From an uncultured Haloferula sp. (GTDB taxonomy: Bacteria; Verrucomicrobiota; Verrucomicrobiia; Verrucomicrobiales; Akkermansiaceae), in contig CBFGTS010000008.1 of the NCBI GenBank assembly GCA_965652295.1, positions 1 to 64,000 of the forward strand: DNA of 64,000 nt, given 5' to 3'. A program made the translations under genes and the position numbers. How positions within the stretch are numbered: position 1 is the stretch's first letter; every line of letters starts with the position of its first letter. The notes below the pieces were generated by a model. The model had not been told where the DNA came from and ran no database searches. It saw nothing but the letters and a program-made list of their open reading frames with translations. Of the stretch, positions 12,619 through 53,488 are shown piece after piece.

Positions 12619-13539
12619 ATGTCTGGCCTGGCGATCGAGATCGAGTCGCTTACGAAGCGATATGGCGCGTTCGTGGCGCTGGCCGGAGTTTCGCTCCGGG
12701 TCCAGCGGGGCAGGGTTTTCGCGCTGCTCGGGCCGAATGGTGCCGGCAAGAGCACCTTGGTCAAATCGATGCTGACGCTGGTCCGGCCCGGGGTCTGTCG
12801 CGGTCGTCTGTTGGGACACCCGGTCGGCCATCGACCGACGCTGGCGAAGGTCGGCTACCACCCCGAGCATGCCCGTTTTTCCGACCACCTCACCGGCCGG
12901 CAGATCGTCCGCATGTCGGCGGGGTTGGCGAAGGTGCCGCGGAAGGCAGTTCTGATGCGGGAGAACGACCTCCTCGAACGCGTGGGCATGAAGGAGCGGG
13001 CGGACGATCTCCACCGCACCTATTCCAAGGGCATGAAGCAGCGCATCGGCCTCGCCCAGGCGCTGATCAACGATCCGGAGCTGGTGTTTCTGGACGAACC
13101 GACCGACGGAGTCGATCCCGAGGGACGCGTCGAGATCCGCCATCTCATCGAGGAAATGCGGGCCGAGGGCAGGACGGTTTTCGTGAACAGTCACCTGCTG
13201 GGCGAAATCGAGCAGATCGCGGACGATGTCGCCATCCTCAGCCGCGGGAGGATCGTGGAAACGGGCAGCATGCGAGGGTTGATGCAGCGTCGTTCATCGT
13301 TCGTGCTGACCACCGCCGGGCCGATGCCCTTTGAATTGAAGGATCGCTTCGAGACCGCGGGATTCAAGGTCGGCGCGGATTTCGTCGAGGTGGAGTCGGA
13401 CGACGCGGTCGCCCTCCAGCCGGTGATCGACGCCCTCCGCGCCGGGGGAGTGGTCATCCGGGAAATCCGCGAATCACGCCAGACGCTTGAGCGGGTCTTT
13501 CTCGATGCGGTTCACAAATCGGAAGAAGGGAACCCATGA
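12619..13539 (+). CDS. ABC transporter ATP-binding protein (ABC-2 type)
   Basis: GPNGAGKST, YSKGMKQR, FLDEPTDGVDP and NSH motifs. Confidence 0.95.
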   Translation: MSGLAIEIESLTKRYGAFVALAGVSLRVQRGRVFALLGPNGAGKSTLVKSMLTLVRPGVCRGRLLGHPVGHRPTLAKVGYHPEHARFSDHLTGRQIVRMSAGLAKVPRKAVLMRENDLLERVGMKERADDLHRTYSKGMKQRIGLAQALINDPELVFLDEPTDGVDPEGRVEIRHLIEEMRAEGRTVFVNSHLLGEIEQIADDVAILSRGRIVETGSMRGLMQRRSSFVLTTAGPMPFELKDRFETAGFKVGADFVEVESDDAVALQPVIDALRAGGVVIREIRESRQTLERVFLDAVHKSEEGNP

Positions 13540-14525
13540 GCCAGTTCGGCGTTATTTTCATCGATTCGCTGCGTCTGTTGAGGGCCCGGGCGCTGTTCTG
13601 GATCACGCTCGGAATCACGCTTTTCGCGGCGCTGCTTTATTTATCCATCGGCTTCACCGACTCGGGGGTCAGCGTGCTTTTCGGACTGATGGAGATCGAG
13701 AACCCATCCTTGCGCGAAGGCACGGCGATGGCCGGAATGTTCTACTTCGCGATCTTTTCGATGTTCCTCGTGAACATCTGGCTTTCGTGGATCGCCGTCA
13801 TTCTGGCCCTGATCACCAGCGCTCCGATTTTCCCCGAATTCATGGCGGAAGGAGCGGCCGGCAGCGTACTCTGCAAGCCGATCTCGCGGCTCAGGCTCTT
13901 CATCTACAAGTATCTCAGCGGACTGCTTTTCGCCTTCATCCAGACCTCGGTGTTCTGCCTGGTGGTGTTCGTCGCGATGCGCTGGCGCGTGGGAAGCTGG
14001 AACCCCACGGTCTTCTGGGCGGTGCCGTTGATCGTTCTGATGTTCTCGTATCTGTGGTCGGTCATGGTCGCCGTGGGCGTCCGCACCGGCTCGGTGATGG
14101 CGTCGGTCCTCTCCGCGCTGCTTCTGTGGCTCGGATGCTGGACGGCGAAGGCGGTCGAGGATTTCACCTGGATGGCGGTGGAGACCGGTGAGTTGCCGTT
14201 CGCCTCGGGAAACGAAAGACTCGAACCCGAGGAGCGGGCCTTGTGGGGGGAGCGGCGGTCGCTGGTCGAGGCTCCGTATGTGATCCTGCCAAAGACGACG
14301 GACACGGTGAACCTCCTCCAGCGCTTCGTCCGGCTTGAGGGTGATCGCGAGTTCTCGCTCAGCGAGGTCACCACCGCGATGATCGAAGGGGTGCCGCGCC
14401 GCGATGAAACCGTGGAGGCCGCTCTCACGAGACGGTCTCCCGGCTTCATCCTCGGCACTTCACTCGCGTTCGAACTGGTGGTGTTCGGAGTCGGAGCCTG
14501 GATGTTCTGCAGGAAGGATTTTTGA
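13536..14525 (+). CDS. ABC-2 transporter permease
   Basis: About six hydrophobic segments, KPISR motif, C-terminal FCRKDF; ATGA overlap with the ATPase gene. Confidence 0.88.
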   Translation: MSQFGVIFIDSLRLLRARALFWITLGITLFAALLYLSIGFTDSGVSVLFGLMEIENPSLREGTAMAGMFYFAIFSMFLVNIWLSWIAVILALITSAPIFPEFMAEGAAGSVLCKPISRLRLFIYKYLSGLLFAFIQTSVFCLVVFVAMRWRVGSWNPTVFWAVPLIVLMFSYLWSVMVAVGVRTGSVMASVLSALLLWLGCWTAKAVEDFTWMAVETGELPFASGNERLEPEERALWGERRSLVEAPYVILPKTTDTVNLLQRFVRLEGDREFSLSEVTTAMIEGVPRRDETVEAALTRRSPGFILGTSLAFELVVFGVGAWMFCRKDF

Positions 14526-14537
14526 GCGACGACGGGC

Positions 14538-17500
14538 TCAATCGATCCGGACCAGCAGGTCATCGCTGTCGATCTGCTCGCCCTTCTTGATGAGGACCTC
14601 TTTCACCGTGCCGGCCTTGGCGGCGGAGACGGTGGTGAGCATCTTCATGGCTTCGAGCACGACGAGCTTGTCGCCTTCCGCCACTTCCTGGCCCGGGGAG
14701 ACGGCCACTTCGGAAACCATGCCGGGCATGGGCGCGCATACCTGCGAGACATCGGACGGGTCGCCCTTCGCCCGGACCGGACCGGCCGATTTCGACAGCG
14801 CGGTATCGGTCACCAGGCTCTCGCGCGGCATGCCGTTGAGCTCGTAGAAAAGCGTCCGGCGTCCGGCGGCGTCCGCCTCGCCGATCGAGACGAGCTTGAT
14901 GAAGAGGGTTTTGCCGGGGTCGATCTCGACTTCGATCTCCTCCCCGGCGCTGAGACCGTAGAAGAAGGCGGGCGTGGGTAATCCACTAAGGTCGTCGTAC
15001 TTCTGGAGCGTCGCCTGGAAGTCCGCGAAAACCGCGGGATACATCAGGTGCGAGTAGAGGTCGTCATCCTTGGCCGGACGCTTGAGGAGTTCGGCGACCC
15101 GGGTGCGGGTGTCCTCCAGGTCCACCGGCGCGGCGAGTTCGCCGGGCCGGCTGGTGGTCGAGGGTTTGTTGTTGAGCACCACACGTTTCACGTCCTCGGG
15201 GAACCCGCCATCGGGCTGGCCGAGCCCGCCGGCGAGCATGTCGATCACGCTCTCGGGCCAGTCGATCGAACCGGGCTTCAGCTTGGGCACATCGGCCGGC
15301 TTGATGCCACGGGTGATGAGGAACATGGCCATGTCGCCCACGACCTTCGACGAGGGCGTGACTTTCACGATGTCACCGAAGAGCTGGTTCACCTCGGCAT
15401 AGGTCCGGGAGATTTCGCGCCAGCGGTGGCCGAGGCCCATGGCATTCGCCTGCTCGCGGAGGTTGGTGTACTGGCCGCCGGGCATCTCGTGCTCATAGAC
15501 TTCGGCGGTGCCCGCGCGCGGCGCGGAAATGAACGGCTCGTATTGGGCGAGCACTTCCTCCCAGTAGTCGGAGAGTTCGTTGAGAGTGTCGAAATCCAGG
15601 CCCGGATCGAGTTCCGAGTTCGCCAGCGCGGCGCAGACCGAGTTGAGGTTCGGCTGCGAGGTGGAGCCGGACATCGAGGCCATGGCGAGGTCCACGATAT
15701 CGACGCCCGCCCGTGCGGCGGCGATCACCGAGGCGGCGTTGAGGCCGGAGGTGTCGTGGGTGTGGAAGTGGATCGGGATGCCGATTTCCTGCTTCAGGGC
15801 GTGGACCAAATTGTAGGCGGCCTGGGGTTTGCAGAGACCGGCCATGTCCTTGATGGCAAGAATATGCGCGCCCATGTTCTCCAACTCCTTCGCTTTCGCG
15901 ATGTAGTATTTCAGCGAGAACTTGTCGCGTTTGTCGTTGAGGATGTCACCCGTGTAGCACACCGCGGCTTCGCACAGCACGCCGCCGTGCTCGCGGGCGG
16001 CTTCCATGGCCACTCGCATGTTCGGCAGGTAGTTGAGCGAGTCGAAGATCCGGAAGATGTCCATTCCGGAATCGGCCGCGTGTTTGACGAAGCCGGCGAC
16101 GACATTGTCCGGGTAGTTGGAGTAGCCGACGGCGTTCGAACCGCGGAACAGCATCTGGAAAAGGATGCCGGGGATTTTTTCCCGCAAGCGGCGGAGGCGT
16201 TCCCAGGGGTCCTCCTTGAGGAAACGCATGGCGGTGTCGAAGGTCGCACCACCCCACATTTCCAGCGAGAAGAGCGAGGGAATGCCGGCCTGGTAGGCGT
16301 CGGCGATGCGCAGCATGTCGTTCGAGCGCATGCGGGTGGCCATGAGCGACTGGTGGGCGTCGCGCATCGAGGTGTCGGTGATCAGCAGGCGCTTCTGATC
16401 GAGCACCCACTGGCTGAATTTCTCCGGCCCGAGTTCTCCTAGCAGCTTCTTGGTTTCCCTGCCATCCGCCGTGGACGGCTTCACGTGCGGCACGCGTGGT
16501 TGGAGGATCGGCGCGGCGGGCTTCCAACCTTTGGCGGTGGCGTTGCCGTTGACGGTGACGTCGGAGAGATACGAGAGCAGCTTCGTCGCGCGGTCGCGGC
16601 GTGGTTTGAATTGGAACAGCTCGGGTTTGGTGTCGATGAGCTTCGTGTGCGCGTCACCGGCTCGGAAGGTCGGATCGGCGATGACGTTCTCCAGGAAGGG
16701 GATGTTGGTTTTCACCCCGCGGATCCGGAACTCGCGCAGCGCGCGGTCCATGCGCTGGCAGGCGATGGGGAAGCTGCGGCCCATGGTGGTCAGCTTGACC
16801 AGCATCGAGTCGTAGAACGGCGTGATGACGGAACCGGCGTCGCCCGAGCCGGCGTCGAGCCGCACGCCGAAGCCGGCGGCGGAGCGGTAGTTGAGAATGC
16901 GGCCGTAATCCGGGGCGAAATTGCGGGCGGGGTCCTCGGTGGTGATCCGGCACTGGATGGCGTAGCCGTTGCAGGGGATGTCCGCCTGGCTGGGAATCGC
17001 GATCTCGTCGCCATGGAGCGGGTGGCCCTTGGCCACGAGGATCTGTGAGCGGACGAGGTCGATGCCGGTGACGCACTCCGTCACGGTGTGCTCGACCTGG
17101 ATGCGCGGGTTCATCTCGATGAAGAACCAGTCTTGCTTGTCCATGTCGTAGAGGAACTCGACGGTGCCGGCGTTGTTGTAGCCGATGCCCTCGGCCAGCT
17201 TCACCGCGGCCTCGCAGAGTTCTTTCCGCACCACCGGATCGAGGTCGATCGAGGGCGCGACTTCCACGACTTTCTGGTAGCGACGCTGCACCGAGCAATC
17301 GCGCTCGTGGAGGTGGACGACGTTGCCGTGCTGGTCGCCGAGGATCTGCACCTCGATGTGCTTGGCCCGGGAAATGTAGCGCTCGAGGAACACGGCGGGG
17401 TTCCCGAAGGCCTTTCCGGCCTCGTCCTGCGCCTCGGTGAGCAGCGGGAGAAGTTGCTTTTCCTCCATGACCACCCGCATGCCGCGGCCGCCGCCACCGA

Positions 17501-17987
17501 AGGCCGCCTTGATGATGAGGGGAAAACCGATCTCTTTGGCGATTTTGACCGCTTCGTCCGTGTCGGTGATGGCTTCCTCGGTGCCGGGAAGCACGGGCAC
17601 CGAGTATTTCTGGGCGAGTTCACGGGCGGCGGTTTTGTCGCCCATATTCTCCAGCAGATCGGGGGAGGGGCCGATGAAGGTGATGCCCTCGCGGGCGCAG
17701 GCACGGGCGAACGCCGCGTTTTCTGAGAGAAATCCATAGCCAGGGTGGATCAGCGTGACGCCCTTCGATTTGGCCAGAGCGACGATGCCCTCGACATCGA
17801 GATAGGCTCCGACCGGGCCTTTCTCCCGGTCGAGAAGGTAGGCCTCATCAGCCTTGAACCGGTGGCGGGAAAAGCGATCCTCCTCCGCGTAGATCGAAAC
17901 CGTGCGGAGTCCGAGTTCGTTGGCGGCGCGGAAAATCCGGATGGCGATTTCCCCGCGGTTGGCTGCCAGCAGCTTGTCGTTGCTCAT
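14538..17987 (-). CDS. pyc: Pyruvate carboxylase
   Basis: ANRGEIAIR, HPGYGFLSEN, RDAHQSL, WGGATFD, IKDMAGL, HFHTHDT and the biotinylation motif EAMKM. Confidence 0.98.
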   Translation of the reverse strand: MSNDKLLAANRGEIAIRIFRAANELGLRTVSIYAEEDRFSRHRFKADEAYLLDREKGPVGAYLDVEGIVALAKSKGVTLIHPGYGFLSENAAFARACAREGITFIGPSPDLLENMGDKTAARELAQKYSVPVLPGTEEAITDTDEAVKIAKEIGFPLIIKAAFGGGGRGMRVVMEEKQLLPLLTEAQDEAGKAFGNPAVFLERYISRAKHIEVQILGDQHGNVVHLHERDCSVQRRYQKVVEVAPSIDLDPVVRKELCEAAVKLAEGIGYNNAGTVEFLYDMDKQDWFFIEMNPRIQVEHTVTECVTGIDLVRSQILVAKGHPLHGDEIAIPSQADIPCNGYAIQCRITTEDPARNFAPDYGRILNYRSAAGFGVRLDAGSGDAGSVITPFYDSMLVKLTTMGRSFPIACQRMDRALREFRIRGVKTNIPFLENVIADPTFRAGDAHTKLIDTKPELFQFKPRRDRATKLLSYLSDVTVNGNATAKGWKPAAPILQPRVPHVKPSTADGRETKKLLGELGPEKFSQWVLDQKRLLITDTSMRDAHQSLMATRMRSNDMLRIADAYQAGIPSLFSLEMWGGATFDTAMRFLKEDPWERLRRLREKIPGILFQMLFRGSNAVGYSNYPDNVVAGFVKHAADSGMDIFRIFDSLNYLPNMRVAMEAAREHGGVLCEAAVCYTGDILNDKRDKFSLKYYIAKAKELENMGAHILAIKDMAGLCKPQAAYNLVHALKQEIGIPIHFHTHDTSGLNAASVIAAARAGVDIVDLAMASMSGSTSQPNLNSVCAALANSELDPGLDFDTLNELSDYWEEVLAQYEPFISAPRAGTAEVYEHEMPGGQYTNLREQANAMGLGHRWREISRTYAEVNQLFGDIVKVTPSSKVVGDMAMFLITRGIKPADVPKLKPGSIDWPESVIDMLAGGLGQPDGGFPEDVKRVVLNNKPSTTSRPGELAAPVDLEDTRTRVAELLKRPAKDDDLYSHLMYPAVFADFQATLQKYDDLSGLPTPAFFYGLSAGEEIEVEIDPGKTLFIKLVSIGEADAAGRRTLFYELNGMPRESLVTDTALSKSAGPVRAKGDPSDVSQVCAPMPGMVSEVAVSPGQEVAEGDKLVVLEAMKMLTTVSAAKAGTVKEVLIKKGEQIDSDDLLVRID

Positions 17988-18095
17988 GTTGCCCAGATTG
18001 CTAAGGGGAGAGGGGCGATCGGGCCAATGGCAAATTTGGGGGATGAGGGCTGGTTATCGAATGAAGAGAAAAATCAGAAAAATTTCACAAAATGA

Positions 18096-18123
18096 TTGAC
18101 GGCGGGGGTGTTCGATATAGCTT
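18096..18123 (+). promoter_or_regulatory. Sigma70-type promoter TTGACG-N16-TAGCTT with an A-rich UP element
   Basis: The -10 hexamer is identical to that of the rplM promoter; A-tracts lie at 18061-18092. No credible CDS follows. Confidence 0.65.
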
Positions 18124-18129
18124 TCGGGC

Positions 18130-18214
18130 GTCGCGACATCGCAAGCGGCCCGATTGAGACGCCTTTGGTTTTGGGTTTTTCCAGAGGAGAATCGATCGGG
18201 CCGCTTCATTTTTT
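18130..18214 (+). ncRNA. Candidate ~85-nt small RNA (nested stem-loop with a UUUUGGGUUUUU loop and U6 tail)
   Basis: 15-bp stem 18143-18157/18192-18206; inner 7-bp stem 18162-18168/18181-18187; T6 at 18209-18214; promoter directly upstream. Confidence 0.55.
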
Positions 18215-18369
18215 GGGTGACGGTTGTTTTCCGAGGTCGGACGACGAGGAGACGAGGAGGAAACCGAAACGGGGAGACAGGTTCCTCCATGTCCTCTCCT
18301 CGACGGGGGCTTTGGAATGCCCGACTGGAGTGCTGAGGAATCCGATGGCATTCCTCGCTTGCGAGAAAG

Positions 18370-18585
18370 CTATCCGAGCACGGCCGCGATCCGGGCGGAG
18401 TCGAAATCGAAGGGGGTGAGTTCCACCGCGACTTGCGATCCGGCCTCGATTTCCGGAGGGTCCTGGGAAAGCTCTTTGGAAAGGTGGCCCAGTGAGCGTT
18501 TGCCATTCGGCAGTTCAATTTCAAACAGCCCGGTTTTCACGATGCTCACGACGACAGCCTGGGTCTTGACGGGTTGCTCGAACAC
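18370..18585 (-). CDS. Divergent translation initiation factor IF-1-like protein
   Basis: 71 aa; FEIELPNG..GHLS..G..V.VELTPFDF..ARI follows the IF-1 OB-fold pattern. GTG start. Confidence 0.75.
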   Translation of the reverse strand: MFEQPVKTQAVVVSIVKTGLFEIELPNGKRSLGHLSKELSQDPPEIEAGSQVAVELTPFDFDSARIAAVLG

Positions 18586-23773: not shown

Positions 23774-23839
23774 CTCTTCCTTGTGCGGAGAAGCCTTTCG
23801 CCGGTCTTTCGAATCGAGGCCGGCGAACTACAAAAAACC

Positions 23840-25498
23840 ATGAAAACACCACATCACATGATCTTTGCCGGAGCCTTGGCTCTTGCATCAGGGATCGGCA
23901 TTGAATCGTCGCAGGCGGCCTTCGGGCTCACCACCACCAGCACTTATTACCAGGTGGATACCGGGGCCGGCTTGGTCTTCAAGGTCCGGCGGACCGACAA
24001 CGGGGTCAGCACCCAATCGGCGGGCGACCTCATGAGCCTCGTCTGGAACGGTACCGAGTTTCAGAATCAATCACGAGGTTCGCAGGTGAATTCCGGATTC
24101 GACTGGCTGTACAACGGGACGTCTTCGGTTTCCGTCTCGGCGTCGGTGGTCAACTCCAACTACATCAAGGTCACAGTCCAGGCCGGCGATCTGACCCACT
24201 ACTACCTGGCTCGTAACGGATACTCGCACATCTACATGGGCACGTATTTCACCAGCGAACCCAGCGTTCATGGCCATGTCCGGTACATCGTCCGTATTCC
24301 ATCGTCGCTCCTGCCCAACGGTCCCGCTCCATCAGACATCCGCAACAACACCGGTGCGATTGAGTCGGGCGATGTCTTCGGACTTGCGAATGGTGAGACC
24401 CGCTCGAAGCACTACTCCAACATGCGCCTGAAGGACTGGTCCTACTTCGGGGCCACCGGTTCCGGTGTCGGCGTCTGGATGGTCCGCGGCAATCAGGAGG
24501 GCGGCTCCGGTGGTCCCTTCTACCGCAGTCTACTCAACCAGTGCGGGTCCGATCAGGAGCTGACCTACATCGTGAACTACGCGCAGGCCCAGACGGAGGC
24601 TTACCGCATGGGTGTCCTCAACGACTACACGCTCGTCTTCACCGGGGGTGGTACGCCGCCCTCGTCGATCGATACCTCGTGGTTCGCCAGCATGGGTCTC
24701 AACGGCTACCTCGCTCCTTCCGGACGTGGACGGGTGGCGGGAGTGGAGATCAACGGCCGCGATACCGCCTACACCTACACGGTCGGTTTCGCCAACACGA
24801 CCGCCCAGCACTGGGTCACTGCGAGGGCCTCGGACGGCTACTACAGTTGCTCCGGAATGCGCCCGGGCACCTACACCATGACGGTCTACAAGAACGAACT
24901 CGGGGTCGATACCCGCACCGTCAATGTCGGCGCCGGAGGCACCACCGTTCTCAACTCGTTCACCGTCGCGAACGACCCGAGCAACGTTTCCCCGATCTGG
25001 CGGATCGGCGATTGGGACGGCAGCCCGGCGGAGTTCCGCAATGGCTCGCAGGTCACCACCATGCATCCGTCCGATGTGAGGCTTGCCAACTGGAACCCCG
25101 GAACCTTCACCATCGGTTCCAGCGGCAACTCCAGCTTTCCCTGCTACCAGTGGAAAGACGTGAACGGCAGCCAGCAGGTCCAGTTCAGCCTCAACGCCTC
25201 CCAGGCATCGTCCAATCGGACTCTCCGTGTCGGGATCACCTGCGCCTATTCCAACGCCCGCCCGCGCGTCACGGTGAACAGCTGGACGTCGTCCATCCCC
25301 GGCATCTCCAGCCAGCCGGGAAGCCGGACCCTCACCACCGGATCCTATCGGGGAAACAACACGACCTATACCTTCACGGTCCCGTCCAGCGCCCTCGTTG
25401 CCGGTACCAACACGCTCTCGGTTTTCCCCGTGTCGGGAAGCGGCTTGTCCGGTTATCTGAGTGCCGGTTACAGCATCGACTGCGTGGACTTCTACTGA
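23840..25498 (+). CDS. Rhamnogalacturonan endolyase, polysaccharide lyase family 4
   Basis: Signal peptide, then AFGLTT..YQVDTG, ETRSK, SGGPF, GRGRVAG, MRPGTYTMTVYKNEL, IWRIGDWDG, MHPSDVR and GSYRGNN, colinear with Aspergillus RGL4 as recalled. Confidence 0.9.
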   Translation: MKTPHHMIFAGALALASGIGIESSQAAFGLTTTSTYYQVDTGAGLVFKVRRTDNGVSTQSAGDLMSLVWNGTEFQNQSRGSQVNSGFDWLYNGTSSVSVSASVVNSNYIKVTVQAGDLTHYYLARNGYSHIYMGTYFTSEPSVHGHVRYIVRIPSSLLPNGPAPSDIRNNTGAIESGDVFGLANGETRSKHYSNMRLKDWSYFGATGSGVGVWMVRGNQEGGSGGPFYRSLLNQCGSDQELTYIVNYAQAQTEAYRMGVLNDYTLVFTGGGTPPSSIDTSWFASMGLNGYLAPSGRGRVAGVEINGRDTAYTYTVGFANTTAQHWVTARASDGYYSCSGMRPGTYTMTVYKNELGVDTRTVNVGAGGTTVLNSFTVANDPSNVSPIWRIGDWDGSPAEFRNGSQVTTMHPSDVRLANWNPGTFTIGSSGNSSFPCYQWKDVNGSQQVQFSLNASQASSNRTLRVGITCAYSNARPRVTVNSWTSSIPGISSQPGSRTLTTGSYRGNNTTYTFTVPSSALVAGTNTLSVFPVSGSGLSGYLSAGYSIDCVDFY

Positions 25499-35200: not shown

Positions 35201-35238
35201 GCGCCCGTCCGGTTTACTGGGGTTTTCCGGGCGGGCGC
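35201..35238 (+). other. Intergenic 12-bp hairpin with loop TTTACTGGGGTTTT
   Basis: GCGCCCGTCCGG / CCGGGCGGGCGC, with one G-U pair. Confidence 0.75.
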
Positions 35239-48404: not shown

Positions 48405-48446
48405 GCCCCGGTTCTCTTTTTTTGGGTTTTGAAAGGGAACCGGGGC
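48405..48446 (+). other. Intergenic 16-bp hairpin with loop TTTGGGTTTT
   Basis: GCCCCGGTTCTCTTTT / GAAAGGGAACCGGGGC, with two G-U pairs. Confidence 0.78.
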
Positions 48447-50944: not shown

Positions 50945-52531
50945 ATGAAATTGCTTTCACGTAGGGAAACCCACCTTCCCAAGATGATCCTGCTCTTCTG
51001 CCTCGTGGCGAGCGGGTTGCGAGCAGGGGAATCTCCTCTCGACCTTCGCTTTATCAAGCAGGCGAGCCAGCGCATGATTTTCAACGACGATCAGGCGCTG
51101 CCGCTTGGCGCGCTGGAGCCGGCTAAAATCGTGGGGTTGGAGCTGATGCACCCGGTCCGTCGGACGTCGGGCAGTGCGGAAGTGAGCGTCGCGCGGGGGC
51201 GGCTCATCGTTCAAGCACAGGAGGAATCCGACACCTCGGTCTGGTTTTCAGGATTCAATCCCTTCGCGACGTACAAAATCCGGATCGCGGGAGCAGGCGA
51301 TGGCAGCAGTGTGGGAGTGGAGTTCATGCATCCGGGCGGGGAGTTGTTGCGGGTGGAGGCGCTCTGCGGGAACCAAACGGTCCGCGGAGTGCGGTGGAGC
51401 TTGAGACGCCAGGATGAGGTGTTGATACAGAGAGAATCCGAGGGATTCCGGCCTCGGAAGCTGGATAGCCCGGCGACTCTGATCGTCCAGATGGCGGCGG
51501 TGGGCTTCAATGTGTGTCTTGAGCAGCATGACATGGTGGAGCTGGTCGGTCGCGCGGATGTCGTTCAGCACCTCGACCTGAGGCGCCATGAGGTGCATCG
51601 GGGGACTTCGACGTGGCTGCGGGTCGCTGGCGGAGAGGGTTCCCGAGCTGCGATCGAGGGAGCGGTGGGGGAGCTGAGTCCCGGCTTGGGACAAGCGGAT
51701 ATCCGTGCCATCACCGACGAGGAAGGGACGCCGCTGATGGATGGCGGACGCCTGTGGTTCACGGCCACGACTCGGGGTGGAGGTCTGCCCCATCCCGCCC
51801 AGGGAGTCTTCAGCTTGAATCCTGGAATCTGGGATCTCCGTTTCGAGGGAATGATCGCCTTCGACCGAGGCGATGGTCTGCTCCGCAACGAGCTTGCCTC
51901 ACATCTGTTTCTGCATCGCCCCAGCGGGGAATGGCGGGGTTGGACGACCGCCTTTTCCGCATTCGGGGATCCCGGGAAGAAGGAGCGGAAGGAGATCCTG
52001 GCCGTAAGCTCGACCAAGGATCCCCGGCGGGGGTTTTCAGTCATGAGATCCGCGCCCGCGGGATTGGTCGGCGATTTCGAGGATCCGCATGGCGTGTATG
52101 ATGCCGAAACAAAAACCTGGAGGCTTCTGCTGTGCCAGAACGTGGGCGGCTATAAGGCGGCGGTCTTTGAATCTCACCGCTGGGACGGCGGGTTCAGCCG
52201 GATTGCCGGACCGGTTGCGGCCGACAGCACTGGCACCACGATCCAGAAGGTCGGCGGCGTGCGCTACGCCTTCTTTGGTGGTTCGGATCGTCAATTTCAC
52301 GTTTGCAGCTTTCCGGAGCTCAAGCCGTTCGGGGCGTTGGAGCTCGATTTGCCGCCGTGGTCGGAGGACGGCAACGGCAGGGTGTGGCCCTGTCTCGTTC
52401 CGCTGCCGGAGGGAAGCCCGGCGCCCTACCTGCTACTGACGTTCGACCGCAGTAATTTCCCCGGCATGACCGGCCCCAACTGGACCTACGGAGCGCTCCA
52501 TGCCTACTACGGATTTCCCAAGAGCCGGTGA
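50945..52531 (+). CDS. Secreted hypothetical protein with a possible glycosidase-like beta-propeller C-terminal half
   Basis: Signal peptide (GLRA); Trp/Asp/Glu-rich beta segments (GDFEDP, DSTG, RVWP). Confidence 0.7.
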   Translation: MKLLSRRETHLPKMILLFCLVASGLRAGESPLDLRFIKQASQRMIFNDDQALPLGALEPAKIVGLELMHPVRRTSGSAEVSVARGRLIVQAQEESDTSVWFSGFNPFATYKIRIAGAGDGSSVGVEFMHPGGELLRVEALCGNQTVRGVRWSLRRQDEVLIQRESEGFRPRKLDSPATLIVQMAAVGFNVCLEQHDMVELVGRADVVQHLDLRRHEVHRGTSTWLRVAGGEGSRAAIEGAVGELSPGLGQADIRAITDEEGTPLMDGGRLWFTATTRGGGLPHPAQGVFSLNPGIWDLRFEGMIAFDRGDGLLRNELASHLFLHRPSGEWRGWTTAFSAFGDPGKKERKEILAVSSTKDPRRGFSVMRSAPAGLVGDFEDPHGVYDAETKTWRLLLCQNVGGYKAAVFESHRWDGGFSRIAGPVAADSTGTTIQKVGGVRYAFFGGSDRQFHVCSFPELKPFGALELDLPPWSEDGNGRVWPCLVPLPEGSPAPYLLLTFDRSNFPGMTGPNWTYGALHAYYGFPKSR

Positions 52532-53415: not shown

Positions 53416-53488
53416 TGGCTCGGGACGGGATCGAACCGCCGACACGCGGATTTTCAATCCGCTGCTCTACCAACTGAGCTACCGAGCC
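53416..53488 (-). tRNA. tRNA-Phe(GAA); CCA not fully encoded
   Basis: GGCTCGGTAGCTCAGTTGGTAGAGCAGCGGATTGAAAATCCGCGTGTCGGCGGTTCGATCCCGTCCCGAGCCA folds as a cloverleaf with anticodon GAA, followed by CCT. Confidence 0.97.

Follow-up and report, generated by a model that had tools for sequence, protein, structure and literature searches.

The window is a stretch of 64,000 nucleotides, and the locus lies on its plus strand between two minus-strand genes, a divergent upstream neighbor encoding pyruvate carboxylase by Pfam (14538-17987) and a convergent downstream neighbor encoding an IF-1-like protein (18370-18585; PF01176 at the cut-off). The IF-1-like protein is a divergent polypeptide of 71 residues that scores below the cut-off of the infA model and is kept beside the RNA in the genus. 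An A-rich tract (18061-18095), which may have an UP-element-like role and whose place is taken by A/T tracts in many orthologues, precedes a σ70-type promoter (18096-18123) composed of a TTGACG −35 box (18096-18101), a 16-nucleotide spacer and a TAGCTT −10 box (18118-18123). The same −10 hexamer is found upstream of rplM (L13 by Pfam). Promoter spacing puts the predicted 5′ end of the transcript at the invariant GUCGCGACA (18130-18138), which contains a self-complementary 8-mer. The RNA unit spans 84 nucleotides (18130-18213) and is predicted to fold into one hairpin with a 15-bp outer stem (5′ arm 18143-18157, 3′ arm 18192-18206), a 7-bp inner stem (18162-18168 and 18181-18187) and the 12-nucleotide loop UUUUGGGUUUUU (18169-18180), the proposed seed. 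The T6 tract at 18209-18214 is kept in orthologues, and the outer stem probably doubles as the terminator stem because this U-tail lies directly behind it. The folding z-score of the 84-nucleotide unit is −4.94, with none of 200 shuffles equally stable, and all 12 loop positions have a predicted unpaired probability of about 0.9 or more. An earlier note on this DNA had described the promoter and the stem-loop-tail architecture of a unit of about 85 nucleotides accurately. A generic promoter and terminator scanner listed neither element of the RNA locus, and their support comes instead from conservation. In a search for expression, four public runs contained at most 0.23 of the sampled words; all were contigs, and none covers positions 18151-18355.

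A DNA search of 60 relatives located an orthologue in 33 of 34 congeners, and the genome that lacks it is 61% complete. In all 30 congeneric loci fetched, TTGAC precedes the invariant GTCGCGACA by a near-constant distance, 34 bases in 15 loci and 35 bases in the other 15, with a spacer that varies. The 5′ motif GUCGCGACA is invariant in the same 30 loci, for which it also served as the anchor for cutting out the sequences. Pyruvate carboxylase adjoins the RNA in 25 of the 30 loci and the IF-1-like gene in 28, a synteny that does not hold outside the genus. The loop is near-invariant in the genus while the inner stem varies, with one pair changed on both sides in 12 of the 30 sequences. Among 38 more distant sequences, 95.5% of cells are paired and both-side changes occur at 18 of 19 pairs (13 of 14 in the basal stem), a result to be read with the structure having been derived from the same alignment and with kin that are not independent. 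None of 500 shuffles reached this level of pairing, and slid structures were 34-54% paired. Stem covariation around a near-invariant loop, conserved promoter spacing and synteny, together with absence from Rfam, bear out the proposal of a standalone sRNA. Judged from sequence, the locus is a real, uncatalogued small RNA gene whose transcription we infer from these features.

The palindrome at 18130-18137 is perfect, and two RNAs could pair through it (−16.7 kcal/mol); alternatively, it may be a DNA site over the start point. It is kept in the σ70-type and many of the σ54-type copies of the RNA within its own family, and is unconserved in other families.

Rfam 15 at the gathering score recognized one tRNA only in the window (53416-53488, minus strand) and one tRNA only in 11 homologue or neighbor loci. 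Four Rfam matches by E-value lie far below gathering, the best local one scoring 21.4 bits vs 70, and the RNA can still be said to match no known Rfam family. No SRP, 6S or Y RNA model matches it. Y RNAs are marked by a Ro60 partner and a bulged basal helix; the basal helix here is unbulged. Profile searches of the genome, which is 98% complete, returned no match to Hfq (PF17209), CsrA (PF02599) or Ro60 (PF05731). A T-box antiterminator, which presents UGGN to the tRNA 3′ end from within a leader, was rejected on the grounds that many homologous loops (CGGGGG, AGGGGG) lack UGG and that the RNA does not form part of a leader. REP palindromes, which come as many near-identical dispersed copies, were likewise set aside, the genome having one full copy and its other loop hairpins standing on unrelated stems.

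Covariance models extend the RNA beyond the genus. Of 151 genomes sampled from the order, 30 were matched by the first model (R1) and 103 by the rebuilt model (R2), some of the latter matches being terminator-length. Full hairpins with a U-rich/G-run/U-rich loop were recovered in 50 of the 51 matches that were fetched and folded. Three Gs form the G-run in the window RNA's own family; f3, f5, f6 and f8 usually have five, and f4 has five to seven. The presence of a G-run is the only order-wide invariant of the loop. R2 matched 5 of 31 genomes of a small-genome genus (g3), where four listed matches are terminator-length and no full-length match to the RNA was seen. Outside the order, R1 matched 5 of 151 phylum-sampled genomes, and the six matches inspected all lack a G-run loop. 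Of 80 records among the matches listed by an exact-pattern scan of species genomes, 79 belong to Verrucomicrobiota taxa (Luteolibacter, Rubritalea, Akkermansiaceae and others) and one is labeled only 'uncultured bacterium'; viral contigs contained no exact match to one pattern. The window RNA is the founding member of a multicopy family present in most Verrucomicrobiales. Tandem RNA pairs occur at several loci among the exact-pattern matches listed, and one relative carries three tandem copies within 550 bases (G003:C1 about 2242015-2243104, L075).

The paralogues differ in their promoters: six of 20 second-copy loci carry TGGCAC-N7-TGC-like boxes and 11 carry GAAAC/GAAAA-N17-CGTT, labeled here by consensus type as σ54 and ECF, respectively. 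Our own patterns sorted 86 copies among the matches listed into 31 σ54-like, 27 σ70-like and 28 of neither kind. The window's genome has an ECF-type copy with extra 5′ hairpins (C11:129736-130007, L033) between a rho-like gene and valS, both named from their translations, and the ECF-type paralogue adjoins valS in several congeners. It also has a σ54-type RNA of about 195 nucleotides with three hairpins (C17 about 24090-24300, minus strand, L455; z = −5.59), whose third loop, UUUCAUGGGUUUUU, is the exact reverse complement of AAAAACCC-AUG-AAA. Clear homologues of this C17 RNA were found in 4 of 120 family genomes; the CAU form is present in four of five such loops on altered stems, and three of four other species carry it. 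The convergent neighbor gene of the C17 RNA itself begins AACCC-ATG.

The same loop recurs behind genes. Five sense-orientation loop hairpins lie 13-50 nucleotides behind stop codons in this genome, and all follow genes for exported-type proteins of 796-1448 amino acids, in a genome where 306 of 3424 genes reach 750 amino acids. Two are in the window. The first (35201-35238, plus strand, loop UUUACUGGGGUUUU) is just 3′ of the stop codon of a gene encoding an 847-residue exported Ig-domain protein and is the second-best plus-strand match of R2 in the window (E = 0.09). The other (48405-48446, plus strand, loop UUUUGGGUUUUG; R2 E = 0.13) is about 50 nucleotides 3′ of the stop codon of a gene for an 872-residue exported protein. 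Two of the five genes have an 8-nucleotide perfect loop match in their own leader, and the post-stop copies may fold back on those leaders. The loop recurs on unrelated stems across copies and is thus the reused unit. An inverted repeat of 23 bp that directly follows a gene (C11 about 25050-25110, minus strand) is near-perfect, has GGGUUU in its loop and looks REP-like.

The start regions of this genome carry little Shine-Dalgarno signal. AGGAG occurs in 26 of 1444 leaders vs 28 in upstream control windows, and AACC occurs in 256 vs 119, as expected from the earlier description of A/C-rich leaders that lack AGGAGG. These leaders are in line with the classification of Akkermansia as SD-scarce in the cited text (PMC10783764). 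AACCCA peaks at −20 to −1 with 49 and 52 occurrences per 10-nucleotide bin vs 4-12 further upstream. Genome-wide, start codons have a strong context: 72% have C at −1, 52% have C at −2 and about half have A at +4. ACCAACC exceeds its Markov-model expectation more than any other 7-mer of the leaders (38 vs 13). Not all of the leaders quoted as examples read as reported: the one at 50945 is TCCAACC-ATG and not TCCAAACC-ATG, and the AACCCAAACC of 12470-12461 sits 50 nucleotides upstream of its ATG. Pairing of the four quoted leaders with the loop is only modest (−10.0 to −13.6 kcal/mol), and better sites exist. One candidate target (23832-23845, plus strand) is AAAAAACC-AUG-AAA at the start of a gene that Pfam assigns to the PL4 rhamnogalacturonan lyases, with a modest predicted pairing of −10.7 kcal/mol. 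Another candidate target, the best of five window sites tested, is the AACCC-AUG start of a gene for a 329-residue membrane protein (13528-13541, plus strand), with −17.1 kcal/mol predicted for the loop plus closing bases; this gene is among those listed with AACCC directly before ATG.

Matching of the loop to leaders was measured with genes, starts and signal peptides called by simple in-house heuristic scripts. Starts were chosen blind to the leader, from signal-peptide anatomy or coding score alone, a design that guards against the circularity of a refined caller and against signal-peptide truncation. A first caller that used coding score only did not have the exported-gene enrichment among its top words, probably because signal peptides were cut short. 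With blind starts, the top five of 681 6-mers in 499 signal-peptide genes compared with 882 others were AACCCA, ACCCAA, AAAAAC, CAAAAA and AAAACC, each of which is contained in the complement of the loop. AACCCA precedes 21 of 126 large exported genes vs 26 of 882 others. Perfect 8-nucleotide matches to the window loop are present in the leaders of 20 of 499 signal-peptide genes vs 6 of 882 others (p = 2e-5); the counts are 2 of 499 vs 1 of 882 at −60 to −30 and 2 vs 1, no excess, in the first codons. When its letters were rearranged in 220 ways, the true loop complement ranked third. Shuffled loop complements performed equally well in 13 of 300 trials in this genome and 18 of 300 in a second species, and thus A-richness explains part of the enrichment. 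An 800-kb sample of the second species weakly repeated the log odds ratio of this genome (0.84 vs 0.83; 14 of 93 vs 10 of 143, one-sided p = 0.039), and a 400-kb sample of a relative that lacks the RNA gave no signal (3 of 50 vs 6 of 69).

With the refined caller, AACCC has the top share of large exported proteins among 47 pre-ATG pentamers (38% of 37 vs 7% overall). Twelve of 14 genes picked by eye from the 43 with AACCC|ATG encode glycoside hydrolase, lyase, sulfatase, sugar kinase, symporter or TonB-receptor domains. In some paralogues the pairing register extends over the start codon. The median AACCCATGA/CCCCCATGA ratio is 1.39 in 14 genomes with GGG loops vs 0.67 in 40 with longer G-runs, a contrast in the predicted direction that amounts to one evolutionary event and has exceptions in two G5 families near 1 and an RNA-less genus with the lowest value, 0.32.

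Other tests went against the match. The AAACCCCC predicted for families with five- or six-G loops is not enriched near ATG, with near/far ratios of 0.89, 1.03 and 0.94 (12, 4 and 3 genomes). The ratio for AAAACCCA is only 1.22 in 10 genomes of the genus and 1.00 in four other GGG-loop genomes, in a test that internal ATGs dilute and that is negative outside the genus. Samples of 400 kb from two five-G genomes gave 8 of 60 vs 3 of 67 (weak) and 5 of 62 vs 6 of 60 (none). Permutation of the 5′ loop flank was null overall, with a mean percentile of 0.52 for a set of 21 variants of which about four were mis-cut, and only forms ending in AU before the G-run rank high at starts; the window RNA loop has a U-U mismatch opposite AUG. 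ACCCAAA and CCCAAAA show no enrichment over a Markov model of all leaders. The suggestion of an anti-leader seed is supported for exported-protein leaders in the genus; it is not supported as a match to leaders in general or, in word tests and samples, in families with five- or six-G loops.

Several specific targets and mimicries were also considered and rejected. The best single duplex target (C1:22101-23474, a 14-nucleotide perfect match) has a long match that is unconserved in 14 relatives; AAACCC-like words stay near the start of its orthologues in most of them. A Shine-Dalgarno mimic for the 16S tail was dropped, the loops never reading GGAGG and the family's own loop having only three Gs; the 16S 3′ end was not found in the assembly. 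Capture of tRNA ends or mimicry of the tRNA-Pro anticodon does not fit a loop that varies in size and in the base before the G-run. A GGGTTT peak at −50 to −41 (30 vs about 12) looked, by eye, like A/T tracts upstream of −35 boxes and not like loop hairpins.

Conservation, structure, promoter classes, the absence of Hfq and CsrA and the enrichment of target words are established computationally, and the favored interpretation, held with somewhat more belief than doubt, is Hfq-independent, loop-seeded antisense repression at the start regions of exported proteins. A housekeeping-type promoter would produce a free-standing RNA that is one long hairpin ending in its own U-tail, and the stems would keep the U-rich/G-run/U-rich loop single-stranded as an antisense seed. 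Hfq would not be needed because the hairpin presents the seed. The seed would pair in vivo with A-rich/CCC words at most 25 nucleotides before the start, or across it (AAAAACCC-AUG-AA), and block initiation. The exposed loop matches the start regions of many exported-protein genes, so it probably blocks their translation; the repressive sense of the effect is suggested by the positions of the sites and the analogy with FopS. In the genus the main targets would be surface and secreted proteins, glycan-degrading enzymes and some sugar-uptake genes. The σ54- and ECF-type paralogues could route other signals into the same target set, and the three-loop paralogue and the hairpins behind large exported-protein genes would bear the same seed. 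A more ambitious extension, offered tentatively, is that, in bacteria that have abandoned Shine-Dalgarno pairing, an order-wide RNA system reads start-codon context and throttles the exported proteome as a class via three sigma factors and the post-stop copies. The seed would have co-evolved with the start context that the lineage prefers, a run of three Gs going with AACCC-AUG and one of five with CCCCC-AUG.

The strongest competing explanation, rather unlikely in our estimate, is that a protein binds the loop and the free RNAs serve as decoys for it, as CsrB and RsmZ do. Candidate partners would be an RRM protein, ribosomal protein S1 and a cold-shock-type protein; with the same low likelihood, the partner would act on the loop behind the stops of large exported genes. 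Several promoter classes and a three-loop copy suit a sponge, as do the five sense hairpins that follow genes for exported-type proteins of 796-1448 residues and a G-run that is the sole loop invariant of the order; the As on the 5′ side could take part in pairing within the loop. Four RRM proteins are encoded in the genome and RRM proteins are present in all 15 relatives tested, but two genomes that lack the RNA still have them. The earlier note had raised the idea of a decoy, and its one direct test, for a loop-like motif conserved in RRM-gene leaders, came out negative: the UUGGGUUU of one such leader is not kept in orthologues, and autoregulation of RRM genes by the loop motif was rejected after inspection of standalone RRM leaders. 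GGGTTT is, moreover, depleted next to starts (two at −10 to −1), and binding by a protein leaves the conserved CAU loop and the enrichment of the complement unexplained. The idea is retained at its low standing; RbpB binds FopS in Bacteroides, and decoy and antisense roles can coexist by analogy with that pair as described in PMC11697453.

A class of RRM genes has a conserved structured leader of its own, GGUGRUG...UGAAACCCG-loop-CGGGAACAGUC, found across the order and also in a genome that lacks the sRNA (C2 about 136660-136785, L085; loci L247, L248, L252, L256, L263, L266, L276, L280, L281 and L284-L286). The two loci scanned have no Rfam match, and the leader is a candidate autoregulatory RNA motif.

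It is improbable that the RNA is a housekeeping-type structural RNA whose basal helix does the work, for example as a nuclease or polymerase substrate, with the leader match a coincidence of A/C-rich leaders. The basal stem keeps its sequence across families beyond the need for pairing, nearly every congener has one σ70 copy, and the pairing tests fail outside the RNA's own family. Against this, the loop is found on unrelated stems, which makes the loop the shared unit; genus g3 has no full-length match, no SRP, 6S or Y RNA model fits, and Ro60 was not found. It is scarcely credible that the hairpin is no transcribed gene but terminates the convergent IF-1-like gene or is a DNA palindrome of REP type: the minus strand folds too (z = −4.60), but promoter spacing is fixed in all 30 loci, G-U pairs are retained as read on the plus strand, the neighbors differ in other families, the genome has one full copy, and a terminator would not conserve its loop.

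A term search of a 2026 review of gut-commensal sRNAs (PMC13750123) did not find the phylum named. The literature searched has no description of this RNA; an unnoticed listing outside Rfam in the supplement of PMC5737381 is possible, the main text of which does not mention the phylum. No regulatory sRNA family described for Verrucomicrobia was met in the literature searched. Verrucomicrobia are major degraders of plant and algal polysaccharides. Antisense repression by the loop, if true, would show control that has no Shine-Dalgarno site to cover and no Hfq to help, and would be a parallel to the Bacteroides FopS circuit in an unrelated phylum. The family is conserved throughout the order, its seed is concrete and its target class is named, so that it could be tested in Luteolibacter or Rubritalea strains in culture; it points to AAAACCCA-like words as the initiation signal of exported-protein genes in these bacteria.

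Known sRNAs offer partial models. CsrB, RsmZ and CrcZ are decoys with repeated loops, and Qrr sRNAs are paralogues under σ54; the RNA described here differs from them in having no GGA loops (GGG is followed by U) and in a genome where CsrA and Hfq were not found. RsaE of Staphylococcus is an sRNA of the UCCC-loop type. RNAIII of Staphylococcus, as described in PMC4615179, also has UCCC loops and acts at the initiation region. An unpaired loop is likewise the seed in RNAIII and RsaE, but the polarity is opposite, with C-rich loops facing G-rich sites.

Cuckoo RNAs of Alphaproteobacteria, in the account of PMC4615179, are proposed to occlude ribosome-binding sites and carry one invariant loop motif on 2-4 hairpins with variable stems. 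The C17 paralogue shares this build, whereas the window RNA and most other copies are one long hairpin. The cuckoo loop motif CCUCCUCCC, an anti-Shine-Dalgarno sequence, is absent from the U/G-rich loops here, whose G-run matches C-rich start regions. One cuckoo member is reported there to be bound by Hfq, which was not found in this genome.

FopS of Bacteroides thetaiotaomicron is a paralogous sRNA family that works with RbpB (PMC11697453). On the description given there, both systems consist of multicopy sRNAs in a lineage that lacks Hfq and has hardly any Shine-Dalgarno pairing, are mostly intergenic with a 3′-UTR-derived form (one in FopS), and coexist with RRM proteins. FopS pairs near the start codons of glycan-uptake genes and blocks translation, the action proposed here. 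The seed of FopS is its 5′ region (positions 1-21 were used as the query), whereas here it would be a hairpin loop; its copies have one promoter type and those here three, the phylum differs, and the likeness is one of description. As far as these published accounts go, the RNA resembles FopS in its proposed working and the cuckoo RNAs in its build, and it belongs to neither because its loop is G-rich and matches C-rich start regions.
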